NCBI GenBank assembly: GCA_003168235.1 | Contig: PMSZ01000129.1 | Location: forward strand, 2,917 to 27,454 | Length of the DNA: 24,538 nt | From: Acidobacteriaceae bacterium | GTDB taxonomy: Bacteria > Acidobacteriota > Terriglobia > Terriglobales > Acidobacteriaceae | Reading direction: 5' to 3' | In this document: in pieces, positions 2,316 through 13,934 of the stretch | How the letters are laid out: each line of letters opens with the position of its first letter | Position numbering within the stretch: the stretch's first letter is position 1 | Position numbers and translations under genes: made by a program | The notes under the pieces: generated by a model | The model's database searches: none | The model's input: only the letters and a program-made list of their open reading frames with translations | Told to the model about the DNA's origin: nothing

Positions 2316-3986
2316 ATGGCAAAGCCCATACTACTTAGCGTGGACGACGATCCCGATGTCTTGCGTGCCATTGAGAGGGATTTGCGTTCGCAGTACGGCG
2401 CAGACTATCGCGTGATGAGCAGCGACGCTCCCGAAGCGGCGCTCGACATTCTCAAAGAACTTAAGGTTCGCAACGACAGTGTGGCGCTCCTGCTTGCCGA
2501 CCAGCGCATGCCGCGCATGGATGGTGTCGGGTTTCTGCAGCACGCGAAGCAGATTTTTCCAGACGCGAAACGCGCGCTGCTCACGGCCTATGCCGATACC
2601 AACGCGGCGATCAGCGCCATCAATCAGGCGGGCCTCGACTACTTTTTCATGAAGCCGTGGGACCCTCCGACCGAGCATCTCTATCCGCAGCTCAACGACC
2701 TGCTCGATGATTGGCGAGCTTCGTATAGGCCGGCTTACGACGGAATCAGGGTTTTGGGGACGCGATGGTCGCCGCGATGTTACGAGCTCCGTGATTTTCT
2801 CGCGCGCAATCGCGTTCCTTATCAGTGGGTCGACGTGGAGTACTCGGCCAATGATCCGGAAACCAAACTGATTCTCGAAACCCTGGGTTCAGAGGCGGCC
2901 AATCTCCCCGTCGTTCTTTTTCCCGACGGGACGAAGCTGTTCGAAGGCGTACCTGCGGACGTGGCGCAGAAGGTCGGGTTGCGTACGCGGGCGCAAACCA
3001 CCTTCTACGATCTGGCAATTGTAGGCGGCGGCCCGGCCGGCTTGGCGGCGGCTGTTTATGGCGCTTCCGAGGGTTTGCACACGGTAATGGTCGAGCGGGA
3101 AGCGCCCGGCGGCCAGGCTGGAATGAGTTCGCGTATTGAGAACTATCTCGGGTTTCCCAGCGGTCTCAGCGGAGGCGATCTCGCGCGCCGCGGGGTGACG
3201 CAAGCCCTGCGGTTTGGTGTCGAGATACTGTCCCCGCAGGAAGCTGTCGGCGTACGAACGGAAGGATCGTACCGGATCATCAAAATGGTCGACGGCCACG
3301 AAATTTCCTGTCACGCCTTGATGATTGCGACGGGCGTCCAGTGGCGGCGTTTGGAGGCTCCGGGAATCGACCGGTTGCAGGGTGCGGGCGTCTACTACGG
3401 CGGCGGCGCTTCAGAGGCTTTGTCCTGCAAGGGAGAAATCGTCTACGTTGTGGGCGGCGCGAATTCCGCCGGACAAGCGGCGATGAATTTCTCCAGGTAT
3501 GCGGAACGCGTCGTGATCCTGGTGCGCGGAACCTCGCTCGACGCCACCATGTCGAAATATCTGATTGACCAGATCAAAGAGACCTCCAACATCCAATTGT
3601 GGAGTCACGCCAGCGTGACCGAGGTGCACGGTGAAACGCATCTCGAGGAGATTTCCGTCCTCTGCTCCGACACAAGCAAACTGGAGCGAGTGCCGGCCAG
3701 TGCCATGTTCATTTTTATTGGAGCTCTGCCGCGGACGGATTGGTTGGCAGGCATGGTCGAGCGCGACGAGCGCGGATTTCTTTTGACCGGCCCCGATGTG
3801 ATGCAAGGCGGAGAACGTCCCAGGGGCTGGGCACTCGACCGCGATCCGTTTCTTCTGGAGACGAATGTGCCGGGCATTTTTGCCGTTGGTGACGTGCGGC
3901 ATGGCTCCGTCAAACGTGTGGCCTCCGGGGTTGGCGAGGGATCTGTGGCTGTTCAATTCATTCATCAATACTTAAGCAAGGTGTAA
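2316..3986 (+). CDS. Response-regulator receiver domain fused to a thioredoxin-reductase-like FAD-dependent oxidoreductase, 556 aa
   Basis: N-terminal REC (ILLSVDDD...LLADQRMP...LLTAY...FFMKPW). A glutaredoxin-like middle segment. FAD motif IVGGGPAGLAAA, GGQAGMSSRIENYLGFP, NADPH motif VVGGANSAGQAA, C-terminal TNVPGIFAVGDV...RVASGVGEG. Confidence 0.9.
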   Translation: MAKPILLSVDDDPDVLRAIERDLRSQYGADYRVMSSDAPEAALDILKELKVRNDSVALLLADQRMPRMDGVGFLQHAKQIFPDAKRALLTAYADTNAAISAINQAGLDYFFMKPWDPPTEHLYPQLNDLLDDWRASYRPAYDGIRVLGTRWSPRCYELRDFLARNRVPYQWVDVEYSANDPETKLILETLGSEAANLPVVLFPDGTKLFEGVPADVAQKVGLRTRAQTTFYDLAIVGGGPAGLAAAVYGASEGLHTVMVEREAPGGQAGMSSRIENYLGFPSGLSGGDLARRGVTQALRFGVEILSPQEAVGVRTEGSYRIIKMVDGHEISCHALMIATGVQWRRLEAPGIDRLQGAGVYYGGGASEALSCKGEIVYVVGGANSAGQAAMNFSRYAERVVILVRGTSLDATMSKYLIDQIKETSNIQLWSHASVTEVHGETHLEEISVLCSDTSKLERVPASAMFIFIGALPRTDWLAGMVERDERGFLLTGPDVMQGGERPRGWALDRDPFLLETNVPGIFAVGDVRHGSVKRVASGVGEGSVAVQFIHQYLSKV

Positions 3987-5375
3987 ATGACCGAATTATC
4001 TGAACTACTGCGGCGTGTGCCCGTCTTCGTGGATCTGCCCGACGATCAGATCTCATGGTTCCTCAGCCAATCCCAAGATCTGCAACTCAAGGCCGGGGAA
4101 TACTACGCACGTCAGGGCGATCCTGCGGACACGATGTCTGTCGTCCTCGAAGGACAACTAGAGCTCCGAGGCGAATTGTCCGGCGAAATGGTCGTGATTC
4201 CCATAGATGCGGGTGAAGTGACCGGCGTGCTCCCTTTCTCAAGGATGAAAAGTTTTTCCGTCAGTGGCCGCGCCATTGCCGACAGTCACCTCCTGCGATT
4301 TCCCGCGACACGCTTTCCGGAACTCGTGCAGAAAATGCCGGAGCTTACGAAGCGCCTCGTGGGCCTGATGTCCGACAGGGTCCGCGAAGCCACCCGGTTC
4401 GAACAACAGCGGGACCGGCTTTCCGCTCTGGGCAAGCTTTCGGCGGGTCTTGCTCATGAACTTAACAATCCTGCCTCTGCCGCAAAACGCGCCGCCGGTC
4501 AGCTGCGCGATCTTCTGATTAAAATCCGCAACGCGAGTCACGATCTGGGAAGGCGCGATCTCTCTTTGGCGCAGAAATCCGAGATTGAAAAAATGGAGGC
4601 CTCATTTACCCAGGGTGACGCGCCTCCGCCCGACGCCCTCGCGGCCAGCGCTCTGGAGGATCAGATTGACTCTTTGTTTCGGAATCACGGTCAGAACGAT
4701 CTGTGGCAACTAGCTGCCGATCTCGCGCGAAAGAATGTAAAGCCCGCAGCGTTGGAACAGCTTTTCACGACGCTGGACGCTGGTACCGCGCGTGCCGCGT
4801 TGGTGAGGATCTCGGCTTCTGTGGAGATTGCCGATCTGCTCAACCAGATTGAGAGCAGCACCTCGCGGATCTCGGAGTTAGTCGGGGCGATCAAGGAATA
4901 CACCTTCATGGACCAGTCGCCCTTGCAGAACGTCGATATCGTCAAGAGCCTGGAGAACACACTGGTCATCATGAATCACAAACTCAAGCAGGGAGTAAAC
5001 GTCCAGCGCGATTATCAGAAGGTTCCGCTCCTGGTGAACTCGTTCGGCAGTGAACTTAACCAGGTATGGACCAACATCATCGACAACGCCGTCGATGCAA
5101 TGGGTGGGGAAGGTGAACTTCGAGTGCGCGCTTATCGCGACGACAATTGCGCTTTGGTGGAGATTGGCGATAATGGCCCGGGGATTCCTCCTGACGTCCT
5201 GCCCCACATTTTCGAACCTTTCTTTACCACCAAGGGAGTGGGAGAAGGAACTGGACTTGGCCTTGACACGACGCAACGCATCGTGAAGAAACACCGCGGC
5301 AACATTCAAGTCAACTCACAACCGGGCGATACACGCTTTCAGGTTTGGCTGCCGCTCGCAGAAAGTTCTGTCTAG
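3987..5375 (+). CDS. Soluble sensor histidine kinase with N-terminal cyclic-nucleotide-binding (Crp-like) domain, 462 aa
   Basis: N-terminus LRRVPVFVDL...YYARQGDPADTMSVVLEG. H-box LAHELNNP, N-box ELNQVWTNIIDNAVDA, G boxes DNGPGI, FEPFFTTKGVGEGTGLGL. ATG directly abuts the upstream TAA. Confidence 0.9.
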   Translation: MTELSELLRRVPVFVDLPDDQISWFLSQSQDLQLKAGEYYARQGDPADTMSVVLEGQLELRGELSGEMVVIPIDAGEVTGVLPFSRMKSFSVSGRAIADSHLLRFPATRFPELVQKMPELTKRLVGLMSDRVREATRFEQQRDRLSALGKLSAGLAHELNNPASAAKRAAGQLRDLLIKIRNASHDLGRRDLSLAQKSEIEKMEASFTQGDAPPPDALAASALEDQIDSLFRNHGQNDLWQLAADLARKNVKPAALEQLFTTLDAGTARAALVRISASVEIADLLNQIESSTSRISELVGAIKEYTFMDQSPLQNVDIVKSLENTLVIMNHKLKQGVNVQRDYQKVPLLVNSFGSELNQVWTNIIDNAVDAMGGEGELRVRAYRDDNCALVEIGDNGPGIPPDVLPHIFEPFFTTKGVGEGTGLGLDTTQRIVKKHRGNIQVNSQPGDTRFQVWLPLAESSV

Positions 5376-6660: not shown

Positions 6661-6942
6661 AAAGCCTCTTCTCATCGAGGATCTCCATTCGTCGTTACCG
6701 CGCGCACACACTATACACCGAATGGCGTCCCCCTGCGCTCTTTCTGCTGGGATGAACCGCGACTGAGCGCGAGAGATGCGCTCTTTAATCTCACCCGTGA
6801 GTCGGATGAGTTTCTCGGAAATCTTACTCTCTCCCACCAGGTTATAAATCCGACAAAAGTAGGAGCGCTCAAGCGTAGAGACTGACCGGGTCCCGACTTC
6901 TGGTTGGACATGTAAGGCCAATATCCTACAGAATGGTTCTCG

Positions 6943-7488
6943 ATGCCGCCATCGCTTAGTGGGCAACTCGCCGGAGTCGTCTTGTCCGACGCTGAGGGAC
7001 GTTCAGTCCAACTGGGCTCACTTTGGGCGAGCGGAACTGTGGTGGTTACCTTCCTTCGCCACTATGGTTGAATCTTCTGCCGCGAGCACATTGCGCGGTT
7101 GCGCGATCACGAGCGGGCGTTCACGGAGAAAGGTGCTCGGCTGGCCGTAATCGGTCTTGGCGATCTGCAGTACGCCCGGGCTTTCCACGCAGAGAGTGGA
7201 ATCACGTTCCCGCTTCTGGTCGACGAACAACGGCTGGCCTATCGTGCGGCCGGTCTTCGCAGCGCAACCCTGGCCCATCTGCTGTGGCGGGAGAATTCAG
7301 TTGCGCGGTCTAGAGCCCAAGCCGCGGGGCACCGGCAACATCGCCTGGGCAAGAATCCCTTTCAATTGGGTGGAAGCTTTGTTTTCGGCCCCGGGAACGT
7401 CGATCTGTACATACACATCAGCCAGACATTCGGAGACAATGCGTCGCCCGCCGATCTTCTGGCAGCGATTCCGTCAAAGCTGTCCTAA
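6943..7488 (+). CDS. Probable selenoprotein: peroxiredoxin-like / AhpC-TSA (thioredoxin-fold) protein with UxxC motif, 181 aa including Sec43
   Basis: Manual translation: MPPSLSGQLAGVVLSDAEGRSVQLGSLWASGTVVVTFLRHYG-(TGA 7069-7071)-IFCREHIARLRDHE...FPLLVDEQRLAYRAAGL...QLGGSFVFGPGNVDLYIHISQTFGDNASPADLL. The UGA sits at the first position of the CxxC motif and is in frame with ORF 7099..7488. Confidence 0.85.
7090..7107 (+). promoter_or_regulatory. Putative bacterial SECIS hairpin
   Basis: AUUGCGC-GGUU-GCGCGAU: 7-bp stem with one G-U pair. The loop starts with G, 25 nt after the UGA. A possible lower stem forms between 7078-7083 and 7113-7119. Confidence 0.65.
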
Positions 7489-7555
7489 GCCGGTTCACGC
7501 CGGACGGCGACGATGTGTCTGTGCGTTTCGATCTGGATATCGAGTAGAATCCGTC

Positions 7556-8239
7556 TCACAGTGCCGCCGACGGGCTTGTTCCCGCTGCCGCGAAGACGTC
7601 GGCAGTTTCCTGCTCCGCGATCGGGATGAACGTTTGTACCACCTCGGAATCGAATTGTGTTCCGCTGTTTTCCAGCAAACGGCGAACTGCTTCTTCGTGC
7701 GCGAGACCCGGCCGGTAGCATCGGTTAGAGACCATGGCGTCGTACGCGTCAATGACACAGATAATTCGCGAAACAAGAGGAATGTCGGTCCCCTCCAGGC
7801 CGGCCGGATAACCCTTCCCATCTATGCTTTCGTGGTGGTGCAAGGCATAGAGGCTCGCTTCTTCAAGGCCTGGGAAGAGACGAAGAATCGACCAGCTATA
7901 TTCGGGGTGGCGGTTGATAATCGCTCGTTCTCCCGCAGTGAGGGGTCCGTTCTTTTTCAGGATAGCGTCCGGGACGCCCACCTTGCCGATGTCATGCAAC
8001 AGCGCGGCGACTTCCACCTGGTATGAGCTCTCTTCGGGAATATTCATCTTGCGAGAAACCCGAAGCGCCCACTCGGCCAATCGCGTGCTGTGGACTCCCG
8101 TGCTGATGTCTTTCAGGTCGAGCAACTGATTGAACGCGCAGACCAGCGAATTGCGGAAGGCCAGATGCTGTTCCTCCAACTCCTTGACCCGCAACAGCAG
8201 CCCCGAAACCTCAAGCACCGAATTGTCGACACCCACCAT
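7556..8239 (-). CDS. Stand-alone HD-GYP domain protein (putative cyclic-dinucleotide phosphodiesterase), 227 aa
   Basis: HSTRLA...ALLHDIGKVGVPDAILKK.GPLT..E...I..HP...HHHESIDGKGYPAGL.G.DIPLVSRII.VIDAYDAM...RCYR. ATG at 8239 lies 20 nt downstream of the S8 stop. Confidence 0.88.
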   Translation of the reverse strand: MVGVDNSVLEVSGLLLRVKELEEQHLAFRNSLVCAFNQLLDLKDISTGVHSTRLAEWALRVSRKMNIPEESSYQVEVAALLHDIGKVGVPDAILKKNGPLTAGERAIINRHPEYSWSILRLFPGLEEASLYALHHHESIDGKGYPAGLEGTDIPLVSRIICVIDAYDAMVSNRCYRPGLAHEEAVRRLLENSGTQFDSEVVQTFIPIAEQETADVFAAAGTSPSAAL

Positions 8240-8259
8240 GCGTGGCCTGTCCCCGTGTC

Positions 8260-9597
8260 TTAAGGAAGTAAATTGCAGGCCTGCATCGCCTGGTACGTAT
8301 CCAGTCGTCCAAAGCCGAGGTTGATGTCCCCAATGTAGTGGGCATTGGCCAGGCCGACCGGAACGGTCCAGTTCGGACAGTTGCTGTTTGCGCCCAACAT
8401 CAAGGCTGCAGCACCAGCGACAAACGGAGTACTGAACGATGTTCCCCACCCGGCGGCATACGTGCCCCACGGATAAGTGGTGACGACGCCTTCTCCCGGC
8501 GCAGCCATAAACACCGGCGGCACACCATAGTTCGTGAAGGTCGACTGCGAGTCTTCGTTAGAAGTGGAGGCGACGTCGATCACGCCCGGCAGGCCGCCAG
8601 GATAGACCATGGTGTATTCTCCGCTATTACCCGCTGACGCGACCGAGATCACACCCTTGCTGTTCGCATATTTGATGGCCTGCGCGAGATCGCTCGAGTA
8701 GCTGGAGTAATTCCAGCTCATATTCATGACTTGAGCTCCATTGGCTACCGCGTAATAAATTGCGCGAAGAATATCGGAATCGTAGGCCGACCCGTTCGCG
8801 CTAAATGCCTTCAACGGCATGATCTTTGCCTGCGGCGCTACCAGGTGGATGATGCCGGCGGTCATGGTGCCATGGCCAAAGTCGGAGTAAGAGCCACCGT
8901 CCAGGACCGCGACGGTGCGCTGATCGAGAACGGCAACCGTGCGCTGATCCAGGACCGTGGGCGATGCCTCGGCATTGTTCTGGCTCGTGGTTGGACCTCC
9001 GCTAACGTCGGCGAGTTCGGACCCGCCGCTCACATTTCGCGTGAAATCATAGCCGTCGAAGAGCACGCCCTGCAACACCGGATGTGTTGGATCCACACCG
9101 GTATCGATATCGGCCACAATGACGCCATTGCCGGCAGCGTTGAACGCTGCTTGCGCCTGGCCGGTTCGCACCAGTTGATTTCCTGTTTGCACCAGATAGC
9201 CTTGCCAGACGGTAGTGCCATAGTAAGTCACCGGCGTTTCGTCGGTCATATATGACGGCGTGCCAGTGCTCACAGGCCCTTGCTGGCTCACCACCTGATC
9301 GACTTCTACCGACAGGACGCCGAGTTGCAGACTGATCTGCAACAGTTTGGTGACGGGATTCAGGATCGGCGGAAGCGTCACCAGGAACAGCTGGCCGTTC
9401 GGATCGCCAAGACCGCGGACCACGTTGCAACCCATCAGGAGGCAGGTTAAGTTAATGCCCGGCAAGCCAAGCGAGTCGGTCACGATGAGTCTCGTCTGTG
9501 CTTCTGCCGCGGGCGTACATGCCGAGACAACTACCAGAACCAGGCACGCCAGCCACCCCATGCCATTCCTTCGTCGCTGATCTTTCTGTTCCTTCAT
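8260..9597 (-). CDS. Secreted S8 (subtilisin-family) serine peptidase with short prodomain and internal octapeptide repeat, 445 aa
   Basis: Signal peptide ending AEA-Q. Triad motifs IVADIDTGVD, DFGHGTMTAGII, GTSFSTPFVAGAAAL. Oxyanion motif SAGN. Confidence 0.92.
   Translation of the reverse strand: MKEQKDQRRRNGMGWLACLVLVVVSACTPAAEAQTRLIVTDSLGLPGINLTCLLMGCNVVRGLGDPNGQLFLVTLPPILNPVTKLLQISLQLGVLSVEVDQVVSQQGPVSTGTPSYMTDETPVTYYGTTVWQGYLVQTGNQLVRTGQAQAAFNAAGNGVIVADIDTGVDPTHPVLQGVLFDGYDFTRNVSGGSELADVSGGPTTSQNNAEASPTVLDQRTVAVLDQRTVAVLDGGSYSDFGHGTMTAGIIHLVAPQAKIMPLKAFSANGSAYDSDILRAIYYAVANGAQVMNMSWNYSSYSSDLAQAIKYANSKGVISVASAGNSGEYTMVYPGGLPGVIDVASTSNEDSQSTFTNYGVPPVFMAAPGEGVVTTYPWGTYAAGWGTSFSTPFVAGAAALMLGANSNCPNWTVPVGLANAHYIGDINLGFGRLDTYQAMQACNLLP
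8899..8955 (-). repeat. In-frame tandem peptide repeat VLDQRTVA-VLDQRTVA-VLD inside the S8 catalytic domain
   Basis: Minus-strand codons: GTC CTG GAT CAG CGC ACG GTT GCC / GTT CTC GAT CAG CGC ACC GTC GCG / GTC CTG GAC. Confidence 0.9.
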
Positions 9598-9733
9598 AAT
9601 TTCTTACCTTTCCGAAAATGGGTCCGGTTTTGGGATGTTTCGCGAGTCTAACGTGCTGACTCTCGACCCGCCACTTACACCCGTAATCTCTTACCAGTAA
9701 CCAATTGCGGTTCCTTTCGTAAGGGGATGCATG

Positions 9734-10357
9734 TTACTTCAAGTTCGTGAGCGGGATCTGCACTCTGCGGCGCCCTACCCTCGCCGTTAGACGAAGGTGT
9801 TCCTGCGGCTCAAATTCGAGCTGAAACTCTCCAAACCCGTTGGCTGCAGCGGTCGCCACCAGCTGCCCGTCTTCGACCCAGACCACGATGGTTGCGCCCG
9901 TTACTGATTCGCGCGGAACTCGCTTATCGAGTATCTGTCCCACCGCAGAAACCCTGCGGGACGGCACAATCGGGTCGAAGCGCAAATCGACAGTCAGTCC
10001 TTCCGCTTCATAAACCACTTGCCGGGTGGTCGCAGCGCTGCTGCGAACGCCAGCCGTCAGAGGCTGCGAAAAGCTGTCAAACAGCAGACTGGCCAAGCTC
10101 CAATTCTCAGACTCAAACTTCGGCTTCGCTGCAGACTGCCGGGCTGTGAATTCGAACTTAGCCATGCGCACCAGGTTTTCGGGTGGAGCGTATGCGCTCT
10201 CTGCCAGTGCCACCGCCTGCAGATGTTCCCAGAAGTCGTAGACGGCCTTGCAATCCAGACAACCGGCGGTGAGATGGGCGTTGATACCCTGCGCTTTCCC
10301 AGGCACATCAAATCCTCGCGCAAAATCAGCCCATGCTTGCTCCGAAAAGTGCTCCAT
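9734..10357 (-). CDS. Soluble anti-sigma-factor-like protein (N-terminal zf-HC2/ZAS-like Zn motif, C-terminal beta-sandwich), 207 aa
   Basis: H-x4-C-x2-C (HLTAGCLDC) near the N-terminus, following MEHFSEQAWADF. Linker FDSFSQPLTAGVRS. C-terminal VGQILD...VVW..DGQLVATAAANGFGEFQL resembles carboxypeptidase-regulatory-like domains. No transmembrane stretch. Confidence 0.7.
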   Translation of the reverse strand: MEHFSEQAWADFARGFDVPGKAQGINAHLTAGCLDCKAVYDFWEHLQAVALAESAYAPPENLVRMAKFEFTARQSAAKPKFESENWSLASLLFDSFSQPLTAGVRSSAATTRQVVYEAEGLTVDLRFDPIVPSRRVSAVGQILDKRVPRESVTGATIVVWVEDGQLVATAAANGFGEFQLEFEPQEHLRLTARVGRRRVQIPLTNLK

Positions 10358-10464
10358 GCTTAACCTCGATTGAGAGGATTCGATAACGACCTCTCGATCT
10401 ATTGAATAAGGGACACCAGACCAGCGAAAAATATAGGTGATGAATAAAAATGTTAGGGCGCCGC

Positions 10465-13323
10465 TTATCCCTTTCCTACCAATGAGAAAGGAGCCCAGTG
10501 GTAAGGATGGGGATAGCGCTCTCGCAACTCGATCATGGCCGCTTGCATGGACGCAGCCTTCGACTGCCCGCGCTGTAGCCGTGCGTAGAACGCGATCATG
10601 AAGTCCTTCGTGCTCTCGTCGTGGACATCCCAGAGGCTGAGAACCAGCGACTGCGCTCCGGCCTGCAGCAGGCCACGCATTAATCCAATCAGCTCATCCC
10701 CAGGAGTAACAACGTTCAGTCCCGTGGCACAGCCGCTCAGGACAATCAGTTCCGCCGGCAATTGCAGGTGGTAAATGTCGTAGAGGCTTAAGTGCGAGTT
10801 CCCCAATCTAATCGAGGAGAACATTGGATTGTCTTGACGGAAATAGCCATGCGTTGCAATGTGGACAATCCGGCTCTTCCCACCGTGGTGCCGTAACACT
10901 TCCTCCGTTGCCCGCTCGCCTACAAACAGCTTGGCGTTGGGAAGCATCGCACTCAGCGCATCCACCTCGGTTTGAATCGAAGGCGTTTGCGCATCGGGAA
11001 TCCCAAGGATCAGAGGATCTCCCGTAGCGTTCGCCGGCTTGGACTGGCACAACGCGTATATGCTGGCGCTCGGAGCGTACGAAACCGAAAAACTATCAAT
11101 CAGGTACGACTCCCCGTCGTGCAGAGCGTGAAATGGAACGTAGTGGAGCGGCCCGTGCTGTACAAAGACCAGATGTTTCGTGTTGAGCTGATGACGGACC
11201 GGCGCAATCAGCTCCTGGTAGAGGTTCTTGAGATGTGCCTGGGTCGACTCCAGCAACGATTGGCTGAACGTCTCCAGATAATGCGGATCAAGACGGAATT
11301 TCGACATCTGGAATTGCAGCAATTGCAACAGCTTCTGAATGCGCGGCTGCAATGTTACCGGAATGATTCGCAATTCGTCTCGCGTCAGGATGCAAGCTAG
11401 ATATCGGTCTTGCACGCGGAAGTATTCGACCAGCGTTGCATCGGCCGGAAGTACGGAGCGAATCTGCTCGAGCGAGACGGTCGTGGCCACTTCCAGGCCA
11501 GCTTCGTGGGCCTCCGCAATTGTGGCCTCCTGCATGGCCCGCATCAGGTCGGTCTCGCGAAGACGTGCCTCTTGCTCGAGTTGTTTAATTCTTTCCTGCG
11601 ATCGCTCTTCGGGGCGCAATTGCTCCCGTTCGATCAGGTTGTAATACCAGTTCAACTCCTCGCGCAGGTTGCGGATCGAGCGCACTAGGTCACTTTGTCC
11701 CGCGTCGCTCGCCGACGGCACATGGATAGGATGACTCAGAAGATCGGCCAGAGTCCTGGACTTTGCCTGCTCGATGTAGCCAAACGCCTCTTCCACGCTG
11801 TTCTGTCGGCGGAGGCACAAATCCACCAGGTTTTCGTAAACTTCTAATTTATTCTGGAAAAATGCGAGCTTCAGCTCTTCGCCCCGCAAACTTCCGCGCA
11901 GCTGTTCTACAGCTTCCCGAGCGCGGCCATAGCACCGGTAGGCGTCTTCATCTTTCCTCGTAGCCCGCGAAATTTCACCCATCAGAAACTCGGCCTGATA
12001 TAGGAGCACGGGCGAATCCAGATTGGCCAAGTCCGAAAGCGCTTTCTGGCAGTGTGTATGCGCGGTGCCGGTGTCGCTCATGCGGAGAGCGATTCGCGCC
12101 ATCAGCAATTCTGCAAGCACGGCCTTGCCGGGCATCGCTGAGTCGCGAAAGAATTCATGGGCCGACACGCACAGCCGTCGTGCCTCAAACAAGCGTCCTT
12201 CATTGAAAAGAACCAGCGCTTCGTAAAGATCGATCAGCGAAGGCCACACCAGGTTCTTGTCTTGGACGAACATCTGCTTCGCTTGCGCGAATAGCTTGAC
12301 ACTCTCGAATGCCTGTCCCATGCGACTGGCCGCGATGGCGGCGAAGGCGAGTGCCTTCGCACCTTCATAACCAAACCCCAACTGCCGGAAGCCTTCGTTC
12401 GCTGCCCGTCCCAACTCGCCAGCCTCGGCGCTAAGATTCAGTTCAAGATAAATTTCAGAAAGGTCGAGATTGCACAGCGCTAGCTGATAAGCGTCACTTG
12501 CTTTGCCCGCGCTGTCGGAGGCATCGCGAAGCATCTGGATCGCGCGCCCGTACTCGCCTCGCAGAAAATAAAGATAGGCAATGTTGTAGTCGGCGTACGC
12601 GACCAGAATCGGCATGCCTCTTTGCTCGCAATGCTGGCGCGCGATGCGGTGGAATTCCAGGGCCTTCGGAAAATCATTGAGGCTGATATAGCAGAGAGAA
12701 AGATTACTCAGGACCGCTGCCAGTGCCTCGCCATCGTCATGTTTCAAAAGCTCATGATAGGCGCGTTCGTAAAATGCCAGTGCCTCGGCGAAACGGTCTT
12801 GCCGGTGGTAAATGTTGCCAAGATTGATTTCGAGCCGCGCCAAACGGCGCGTATTGCCCTGTTTCCGGAAGATTTCCGCCGCACGTCTTCCCGTGGCGGC
12901 GGCTTGATCGTACCGTCCAAGCAGCAACAAAGGCTGAATCGAGCCGCTCAGGCTGCGCGCCAACTCGGTGTCATCGCCGGCCTGTTCGAAGCACGCCGCA
13001 GCTCGCTCGTGATACTCAATCGATTGTGCATGCCGATCGAGCGCGTACAACGCATTCGCCTTCGCCCGGAAACTCCTTGCGAGTGAGATTTGACTGCCTG
13101 TGGCTTCAGCGACATCGATCGCCGCATCCGCAATGCGGTCGGCGCGATGCGTGTCAATCCTGACCTCCTGCCAGACGCGTTCGGTTAGCGTCGTGACCGC
13201 TTCGTCCCAGGCGATTTCAGGATTTTCTGTCATGAACTCGCGGCGCCCCTTCGCGTCTTCCAACGCGAGCAGCCGCTTGATCATGGCCTCCGACTCTGTC
13301 TGCCGCGCCGGCTGGGTGCTCAT
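10465..13323 (-). CDS. TPR-repeat + CHAT (caspase/HetF-like) cysteine protease, 952 aa
   Basis: Multiple TPR-like helices (ARLEINLGNIYHRQDRFAEALAFYERA; AAVLSNLSLCYISLNDFPKALEFH). CHAT motifs PLHYVPFHALHDG, VHIATHG (His at 10849-10851), LIVLSGCATG (Cys at 10729-10731), SLVLSLWDV, HPYHWAPF. ATG at 13323 overlaps the sigma TGA. Confidence 0.92.
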   Translation of the reverse strand: MSTQPARQTESEAMIKRLLALEDAKGRREFMTENPEIAWDEAVTTLTERVWQEVRIDTHRADRIADAAIDVAEATGSQISLARSFRAKANALYALDRHAQSIEYHERAAACFEQAGDDTELARSLSGSIQPLLLLGRYDQAAATGRRAAEIFRKQGNTRRLARLEINLGNIYHRQDRFAEALAFYERAYHELLKHDDGEALAAVLSNLSLCYISLNDFPKALEFHRIARQHCEQRGMPILVAYADYNIAYLYFLRGEYGRAIQMLRDASDSAGKASDAYQLALCNLDLSEIYLELNLSAEAGELGRAANEGFRQLGFGYEGAKALAFAAIAASRMGQAFESVKLFAQAKQMFVQDKNLVWPSLIDLYEALVLFNEGRLFEARRLCVSAHEFFRDSAMPGKAVLAELLMARIALRMSDTGTAHTHCQKALSDLANLDSPVLLYQAEFLMGEISRATRKDEDAYRCYGRAREAVEQLRGSLRGEELKLAFFQNKLEVYENLVDLCLRRQNSVEEAFGYIEQAKSRTLADLLSHPIHVPSASDAGQSDLVRSIRNLREELNWYYNLIEREQLRPEERSQERIKQLEQEARLRETDLMRAMQEATIAEAHEAGLEVATTVSLEQIRSVLPADATLVEYFRVQDRYLACILTRDELRIIPVTLQPRIQKLLQLLQFQMSKFRLDPHYLETFSQSLLESTQAHLKNLYQELIAPVRHQLNTKHLVFVQHGPLHYVPFHALHDGESYLIDSFSVSYAPSASIYALCQSKPANATGDPLILGIPDAQTPSIQTEVDALSAMLPNAKLFVGERATEEVLRHHGGKSRIVHIATHGYFRQDNPMFSSIRLGNSHLSLYDIYHLQLPAELIVLSGCATGLNVVTPGDELIGLMRGLLQAGAQSLVLSLWDVHDESTKDFMIAFYARLQRGQSKAASMQAAMIELRERYPHPYHWAPFSLVGKG

Positions 13324-13934
13324 CAGAAGCCCCTCTTTTCCAGTCGTTTCTTGAGCTGGGCGAGACACCGTCCCCGGATGAATCCGATCGAGCCGATTGC
13401 AAGTCCGAGTTCCTGCGCAACCTCCTCGTAGGGGCGTGAGGGAGTCTCGAAGAAAAGCATCTGGATCATGCGCTCGCAACGCTCCGGCATCTCGGAGATC
13501 GCGTCGCGCAGCGATTGTTCTTGCTCGAGTTGCACCAACATGCTGTCCGGGAGCTCATGATCGCTGTTGTCGTGCGGCCTTTCCGCAACTTCTGGTTCGA
13601 GTTCGACAAGTCGGCCGGCGCTGCGTCGGTAATGCACGCATTTGTGATAGCAAGCCTGCATCAGCCATTTCGGCAGCGCCCGGTGTTCCCGCAAGCGCGG
13701 CAGTTCCAAAAGTAGATCCACGCATACCGCCTGAAAAATGTCGGCCGCATCCTGATACATGCCCAGCTTGATCGGGATGGAGTAGATCAGGTTCTTGTAT
13801 TTATCGATGAGTGCAGCCCAGGCCTCCGGGTCGCCGTTAAGGCAATTCTTGATCAGTTTGTCGTCCGAAAAAAGAGCTGGTGCGCGTGCCGTCGCCGCCC
13901 GCTCTTTCTGACGCTTGGCCGCAGGACCTGTCAT
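13323..13934 (-). CDS. ECF-type sigma-70 family RNA polymerase sigma factor, 203 aa
   Basis: Region 2 (LIKNCLNGDPEAWAALIDKY...DAADIFQAV...LPKWL) and region 4 (LRDAISEMPERCERMIQMLF...YEEVAQELGLAIGSIGFIRGRCLAQLKK). Confidence 0.9.
   Translation of the reverse strand: MTGPAAKRQKERAATARAPALFSDDKLIKNCLNGDPEAWAALIDKYKNLIYSIPIKLGMYQDAADIFQAVCVDLLLELPRLREHRALPKWLMQACYHKCVHYRRSAGRLVELEPEVAERPHDNSDHELPDSMLVQLEQEQSLRDAISEMPERCERMIQMLFFETPSRPYEEVAQELGLAIGSIGFIRGRCLAQLKKRLEKRGF

Follow-up and report, generated by a model that had tools for sequence, protein, structure and literature searches.

A mis-annotated Prx-like2 gene of an Acidobacteriaceae bacterium very probably encodes a UxxC selenoprotein

Introduction

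Within 24,538 nucleotides of DNA from an Acidobacteriaceae bacterium (this whole stretch is called the window below), a thioredoxin-like reading frame is interrupted by one TGA. Does this codon end the gene, or is it read as selenocysteine (Sec)? A preliminary description, made from the DNA letters alone, had favoured the second answer and pointed to a UxxC motif and to a hairpin just behind the TGA.

Since the Sargasso Sea and GOS data were analysed, UxxC selenoproteins of Prx-like or Trx-like fold have been known as a large class (PMC2398784, PMC1794560). Inventories list a “Prx-like thiol:disulfide oxidoreductase” with the motif UxxC or UxxU, assigned to pfam00578 (PMC9312934, PMC13188914, PMC2398784), and an “AhpC/TSA family protein” with the motif UxxS, assigned to pfam13911 / cd02970 (PMC9312934, PMC13188914). 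SelL is also mentioned as a Prx-like selenoprotein (PMC2398784).

Results

A single frame with one TGA

The frame had been described correctly: its coordinates and sequence were confirmed on re-reading. On the plus strand a single frame runs from ATG 6943 to TAA 7486–7488, and its sole interruption is the TGA at codon 43 (Table 1). Upstream of it lie 42 sense codons, ending ...VVVTFLRHYG; downstream, IFCREH follows in frame and 138 codons lead to the TAA. With the TGA read as U, the product has 181 residues and contains the motif RHYG-U-I-F-C. Homologues align to this read-through protein from residue 1 to about 177. The promoter match found ahead of the start codon is not conserved, and chance alone would give 0.3 such sites in the region.

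Of the 20 ORFs in the window with at least 250 codons, 7 end in TGA, which is therefore not generally a sense codon in this host. Genetic codes 4 and 25, in which TGA stands for Trp or Gly, were rejected on this ground and because relatives have Cys at the site, neither Trp nor Gly.

Table 1. Positions of the features discussed in the text (numbering of the window).
Feature	Position	Strand	Evidence
Complete coding sequence, very probable UxxC selenoprotein of Prx-like2 / AhpC-TSA_2 fold, 181 residues	6943..7488	+	Frame; Pfam; homologue alignment; AlphaFold2 model
UGA codon 43, very probably read as Sec; first position of the U-I-F-C redox motif	7069..7071	+	TGA in 160/160 related loci
TGC codon 46, second (putative resolving) Cys of UxxC	7078..7080	+	Invariant in 126/126 distinct genes; aligns with Cys47 of PGFS
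Bacterial SECIS-type hairpin within the coding sequence	7090..7107; arms 7090-7096 and 7101-7107; conserved 5-bp core 7092-7096/7101-7105	+	Fold; core pairing in relatives; codon invariance
Apical tetraloop, GGUU in the window (family consensus AGUU), conserved G then U	7097..7100	+	Sequence; homologue alignment
129-aa gene-caller product, an artefact of annotation; the supposed TTG start codon encodes the invariant Leu53, in the SECIS loop	7099..7488	+	ORF list; database entry
Weak putative sigma-70-like promoter match, 9 nt upstream of the start codon, uncertain	6905..6934	+	9/12 consensus positions

Family and predicted fold

Against Pfam, the protein scored 60.6 bits with PF13911 AhpC-TSA_2 (cut-off 27), 44.5 with PF00578 AhpC-TSA and 34.5 with PF08534 Redoxin. 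The weaker AhpC-TSA and Redoxin matches begin at residue 14, upstream of the TGA. The score and a thioredoxin fold with the redox motif at the start of helix 1 together place the protein in PF13911. The only NCBIfam match was NF040769, “SelL-related redox protein”, in which residues 13–175 align with model positions 7–172; at 113 bits (104.1 in a six-frame search), against a curated cut-off of 120, the protein falls outside this family, as a near neighbour.

A profile of the family matched human prostamide/prostaglandin F synthase (PGFS, PDB 9us9) with an E value of 7e-11, residues 10–176 aligning with 11–180. When position 43 is written as C, LRHYG-C-IFC-R aligns with LRRFG-C-VVC-R of PGFS, and since the CxxC motifs align, Sec43 and Cys46 would match the catalytic Cys44 and Cys47 of the human enzyme. 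An AlphaFold2 model, built from a 19-sequence alignment, reached a pLDDT of 91.3 and a pTM of 0.88. Residue 43 lies in this model at the N-terminal end of helix 44–55, directly after strand 32–37, which in the predicted structure is the classical CxxC position of the thioredoxin fold. In a Foldseek search with the model, PGFS structures ranked highest (TM 0.77/0.85), ahead of BCP/PrxQ peroxiredoxins and ResA; the peroxiredoxin structures match the general fold only (TM 0.6–0.7).

Two neighbouring identities were considered and rejected. A canonical peroxiredoxin (Prx/BCP/AhpC) would have the PxxxT/SxxC motif, which is absent: the residues before Cys46 are R-H-Y-G-U-I-F, with neither Pro nor Thr/Ser. 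SelL proper has UxxU, and the motif here is U-I-F-C, with TGC at the second position and Cys46 invariant.

Codon 43 in relatives

Among 5.8 billion clustered proteins, 2,344 matched the query. Most of the best 120 of these 2,344, which were inspected, are fragments of 125–137 residues covering only the C-terminal 63–74% of the query, the typical database pattern of genes cut at a Sec codon. The entry of the window itself has 129 aa, is 100% identical and starts at TTG 7099. It had been foreseen that automated pipelines would call the gene truncated, and both this entry and the fragments listed for most relatives bear it out. At position 43, full-length database entries carry either C or W; the one W entry that was checked translates only if TGA is set to W.

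Two scans of contigs from one genome per species yielded 80 loci each (160 in total), with 126 distinct coding sequences. The check that had been proposed was whether homologues have Cys or TGA at codon 43, with conservation on both sides. TGA was present at the aligned codon in all 160 loci, and six verified Cys forms have TGC or TGT there and translate with the standard code. The 160 loci belong mostly to Terriglobales, Acidobacteriaceae, Candidatus Angelobacter, Acidoferrum and Bryobacteraceae, together with a few bins labelled Binatus, Verrucomicrobiia, Methylomirabilota, Dormiibacterota and Thermoanaerobaculia. Upstream of the TGA, residues 14–42 are conserved at the protein level and their synonymous sites vary freely; for the 126 distinct genes, purifying selection at the protein level was found on both sides of the TGA. 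The alignment thus contains an in-frame UGA that faces Cys in homologues and is flanked by conserved sequence.

A hairpin under RNA-level constraint

The hairpin that had been reported, of 7 bp and 25 nt 3′ of the UGA, is there as described: it has seven pairs, one of them U-G, the loop GGUU, and 25 nt between the UGA and the first loop base. In the single sequence, its folding energy was not above chance (z = 0.22 against shuffles, for a 62-nt stretch). Evidence for the hairpin must therefore come from relatives. A consensus structure derived from 79 distinct 66-nt stretches starting at the TGA has a 5-bp stem (CGCGC/GCGCG) and a 4-nt loop, and this core with its loop is kept in 79 of the 79 sequences, the single pairs forming in 77–79 of them, so that the core of the reported stem is conserved in homologues. 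Variants of the stem among relatives consist of G-U pairs and one compensatory G-C to A-U change; the two outer pairs of the window are often unpaired. A covariation test on the 7-bp stem was largely uninformative, since the stem is almost invariant and has one compensatory pair only. Four of the five measures were unremarkable relative to controls, and the number of cells changed on both sides (4) was reached by only 7 of 500 shuffles. As a nearly invariant hairpin gives almost no covariation, the RNA argument rests on suppressed synonymous change.

Codon usage at the hairpin was inspected in the 126 distinct Sec genes. Ala51 is GCG in 125/125, Gln52 is CAG in 125/125, Leu53 is TTG in 126/126 and Arg54 is CGC in 117/122. 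Codon entropy is about 1.2–2.3 bits at conserved residues of 4–6-fold degeneracy elsewhere in the gene, whereas codons 51–54 have nearly none, and other conserved Leu columns use five to six codons, versus TTG alone at Leu53. This near-absence of synonymous variation is confined to the Sec genes. Cys forms that keep the A-Q-L-R residues use different codons, for example CTC, CGT and GCT, and their stem is broken; the local hairpin energy is −2 to −7 kcal/mol in the Cys forms versus about −9 to −10 kcal/mol in the Sec genes. In one Cys form a 4-bp remnant of the SECIS stem persists, and remnant hairpins are known in Cys genes derived from Sec ancestors (PMC1794560).

The hairpin, which had been called SECIS-like, is therefore a real, conserved element on which the near-invariant synonymous sites reveal an RNA-level constraint. 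Its structure, its distance from the UGA, these codons and its loss in the Cys forms agree with the SECIS of a bacterial selenoprotein gene. An Rfam scan of the whole window gave no family at the gathering score; a short hairpin of such a kind is not expected in Rfam.

The loop base at 7097 in independent sequencing runs

Many metagenomes and metatranscriptome libraries from peat and permafrost contain the locus at 99% identity or more. Contigs of three RNA-library runs and of one independent DNA run (X10) were compared with the window over 6800–7600. The TGA at codon 43 is unchanged in all four other runs. At 7097 all four have A, which gives Gln52 (CAG) and the loop AGUU, where the G of the window gives Arg52 and GGUU. 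At 6969 all four have T versus C in the window, a synonymous difference. A also stands at 7097 in all 78 other homologue sequences of the alignment, and the window alone has Arg52 among the 126 distinct genes, the other 125 having Gln52 (CAG). G7097, and with it the GGUU loop, is private to this assembly, and is either a strain variant or an assembly error. Since the four other runs and the 78 homologues read A, the usual loop is AGUU, with the G in second place. The “G-initiated GGUU loop” of the preliminary description thus holds for the letters of the window but not for the loop as it normally occurs; the window loop still has G followed by U.

One RNA-library contig, of 445 nt, covers 6889–7333, that is, from upstream of the start codon across the TGA. 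It is compatible with one transcript but is no proof of it, since RNA libraries can contain DNA. Differences were also seen further 3′: RNA-library contigs of two runs have a frame-breaking 1-nt deletion at 7344, and one of these also has a 2-nt CT insertion behind 7281. Coverage of the third RNA run is interrupted at 7334–7382, and the DNA run X10 has no indel at 7281 or 7344.

Sec machinery in the genome

The window is part of contig C133 of a 3.7-Mb assembly of 567 contigs, estimated to be 71% complete. It had been proposed to look for selA, selB, selC and selD, and all were found except selB. Profile searches of the genome gave selA with 533 bits and selD with 368 bits, the latter on contig C110 (locus L005, about 455–1600, + strand). 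SelD appears itself as a selenoprotein, with an in-frame TGA in the motif VKAAG-U-ASKLSP. Two genes were called as tRNA-SeC with the anticodon UCA, C19:3984-4076 (L009) and C162:5291-5382 (L008).

These two tRNA-Sec-like genes are about 65–70% identical, as counted from their alignment. A single tRNA-Sec of 91–94 nt, mostly 93 nt, the length of the C19 copy, is found in 14 of 15 relatives of the genus. The C162 gene lies at a contig end, and could come from a contaminant contig or be an extra selC-like tRNA.

No selB was found in the assembly with TIGR00475 or with the SelB winged-helix profile PF09107, the best GTPase match being TypA. In the same search EF-Tu, for which nearly all relatives give about 195–200 bits, was also absent from the assembly. 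A selB above cut-off was detected in 20 of the 20 relatives searched, 12 of them of the same genus. With an assembly that is 71% complete and without EF-Tu too, and with selB in all these relatives, the missing selB is best explained by assembly incompleteness.

The genome also contains a second candidate selenoprotein gene, on contig C362 (L182) at 968–1999 of the + strand, with a TGA at 1163–1165 and a product of 343 aa. Its N-terminus resembles a signal peptide; an AhpC-TSA match of 91.7 bits contains FFRSADW-U-PFC, and a DsbD_N match of 32 bits lies at the C-terminus. A hairpin stands right after this TGA.

Distribution, tree and neighbourhood

Probing with NF040769 showed an orthologue (about 104–120 bits) in the genome itself and, beyond it, in one of 18 further members of the genus and in 2 of 12 genomes from a second family of the same order. 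Each of these orthologues has exactly one TGA. Weaker paralogues (44–48 bits) in the relatives have no TGA, whereas the C362 match of the genome itself (47.7 bits) has one.

A maximum-likelihood tree was computed with the Sec/Cys site masked; its root is not established. Within a well-supported group of 12 members, the window clusters with an Acidobacteriaceae MAG (78% identity). Two Cys forms make up a separate deep clade (100/100). The four other Cys forms (L185, L186, L187 and L179) are placed singly inside the Sec clade, one of them as sister to a Sec gene (100/89). The simplest reading of the tree suggests several independent, recent replacements of Sec by Cys.

In 80 homologue loci, the 3 kb around the gene contain none of the ORFs that flank it in the window, and gene context consequently gives no functional clue. 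At 2316–3986 (+) in the window, a response-regulator receiver is fused to a pyridine-nucleotide-disulfide oxidoreductase of thioredoxin-reductase-like type, an unusual redox/signalling fusion, and a cNMP-binding histidine kinase follows directly at 3987–5375 (+). This pair (2316–5375) is not conserved beside the selenoprotein gene in other genomes. Downstream, on the opposite strand (7556–13479), an HD-GYP (HD_5) protein, an S8 subtilase and a TPR-CHAT protein are encoded.

Discussion

How is UGA 43 read?

The TGA might be a nonsense mutation, and the locus an ordinary CxxC Prx-like gene inactivated by it. If only one MAG is considered, an in-frame TGA does resemble such a mutation, and further indels are present in the 3′ part of the RNA-library contigs of two runs. 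However, 126 distinct genes that belong to different species and phyla share this TGA in intact frames, both of its flanks are under purifying selection, and the independent DNA run has the frame of the window without indels. The comparative data effectively refute a pseudogene, which is left with next to no probability. Scarcely more credible is a stop at the TGA followed by a restart, which would yield a 42-residue peptide and a separate 129-residue product from TTG 7099. It is the model adopted by gene callers here and in most of the listed relatives, and TTG 7099 is indeed invariant, but the invariance reaches the GCG, CAG and CGC codons, which are not start codons, and the hairpin explains that of TTG. 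Moreover, the 129-residue piece cannot form a thioredoxin-fold active site because it is without strand 32–37 and the whole UxxC motif. The two parts always share one frame, and full-length Cys forms exist.

UGA 43 could also be decoded as Ser, Cys or Trp by a suppressor-type or tRNA-Sec-like tRNA with the anticodon UCA. This possibility, for which the two different UCA genes on C19 and C162 and the translation of the codon as W by JGI pipelines in some relatives may be quoted, is very improbable. The Sec pathway is complete apart from selB, and selD is itself of the Sec type; the constrained hairpin fits SelB-dependent decoding, and a plain suppressor needs none. In relatives the site alternates only with Cys, and does so at the catalytic CxxC position, the JGI “W” being an artefact of gene calling with code 4. 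Elsewhere in the window TGA is a normal stop, and the C162 tRNA, at its contig end, may be a contaminant.

The very probable reading is that 6943–7488 form one intact gene, whose product is a cytoplasmic thiol/selenol oxidoreductase with a thioredoxin fold, of the Prx-like2 type (AhpC-TSA_2, PRXL2/SelL-related), in which Sec takes the place of the first Cys of CxxC; the actual incorporation of selenium, the substrate and the reductant are inferred. The selenoprotein proposed in the preliminary description is thereby supported, and of the refutation tests named there, all of which were run, none refuted it.

Proposed decoding and chemistry

By analogy with E. coli fdhF, the hairpin at 7090–7107 would be bound by SelB while the ribosome stands at the UGA. 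SelB with GTP would carry the Sec-tRNA(Sec), made by SelA from Ser-tRNA(Sec) with selenophosphate from SelD, and Sec would be inserted at UGA 43 in place of termination.

The fold and the precedents of PGFS and CxxC proteins suggest a chemistry in which the Sec43 selenolate would attack an oxidised substrate, at the O-O bond of a peroxide or endoperoxide or at a disulfide. The resulting selenenic acid or mixed intermediate would be resolved by Cys46 to a selenenylsulfide, and a thioredoxin-type reductant would regenerate the enzyme.

A more far-reaching proposal, which we consider unlikely, is that the UxxC clade would be more than one further Prx-like selenoprotein, namely a selenoenzyme in its own right that is horizontally mobile among peat and soil Acidobacteriota. 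Its chemistry would be PGFS-like, with lipid endoperoxides or hydroperoxides reduced at the expense of thioredoxin. Since the SECIS lies inside the coding sequence, the gene could be passed on as a complete unit from one Sec-competent lineage to another. In line with this proposal are the spread over several phyla, the presence in only 1 of 18 genus relatives and the repeated Sec-to-Cys reversions. In a bolder variant of it, the C162 tRNA-Sec-like gene would provide an alternative decoder of UGA 43.

Comparison with known systems

Like other prokaryotic Prx-like / AhpC-TSA selenoproteins, the protein has a thioredoxin fold with Sec first in the redox motif, an in-CDS SECIS just 3′ of the UGA, many Cys homologues and a routine mis-annotation as truncated. 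It shares PF13911 with the catalogued UxxS entry, which comes from a marine worm symbiont metagenome; in contrast to that entry, the present clade is UxxC (RHYG-U-IF-C) and belongs mainly to soil and peat Acidobacteriota. We found no paper describing this UxxC Acidobacteriota clade specifically, and the BSepDB paper does not mention the family.

SelL, reportedly first described by Shchedrina et al. (PNAS, 2007), has two Sec residues (UxxU) in its proper form, which is aquatic. SelL and NF040769 resemble the present protein in the Prx-like2 fold and in the place of the redox motif, but here one Sec is combined with one Cys. The closest solved structure, both by sequence profile and by fold, is human PGFS (PRXL2B; PDB 9us9, 9usa), with an identity of only about 22–24% and with Cys in the human enzyme where Sec is expected here. 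Bacteria are not expected to contain prostaglandin H2, the substrate of PGFS, so that what carries over is the chemistry alone, in which an O-O bond or a disulfide is reduced with thioredoxin.

The SECIS of E. coli fdhF, whose loop sequence is GGUC, is likewise an in-ORF hairpin immediately downstream of the UGA, with a conserved G in a small apical loop. Compared with it, the conserved stem here is shorter (5–7 bp) and no conserved bulged U was seen, and the distance from the UGA to the loop is about 7 nt greater than in fdhF.

Significance

The gene is an additional mis-annotated member of the known Prx-like selenoprotein class, and its biology is ordinary. No new mechanism or class is opened, and the practical value lies in corrected annotation. 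With it, the Prx-like2/SelL-related selenoproteins gain a well-supported UxxC clade. The finding also provides a clean natural example of a coding-region SECIS that is seen as near-invariant synonymous sites, and of Sec-to-Cys reversions with remnant hairpins. In public databases, the gene and the majority of the relatives listed from soil, peat and permafrost Acidobacteriota appear as fragments of 125–137 residues without the active site, or with a spurious Trp, and as a consequence the redox function and the selenium dependence of abundant soil bacteria are under-counted.
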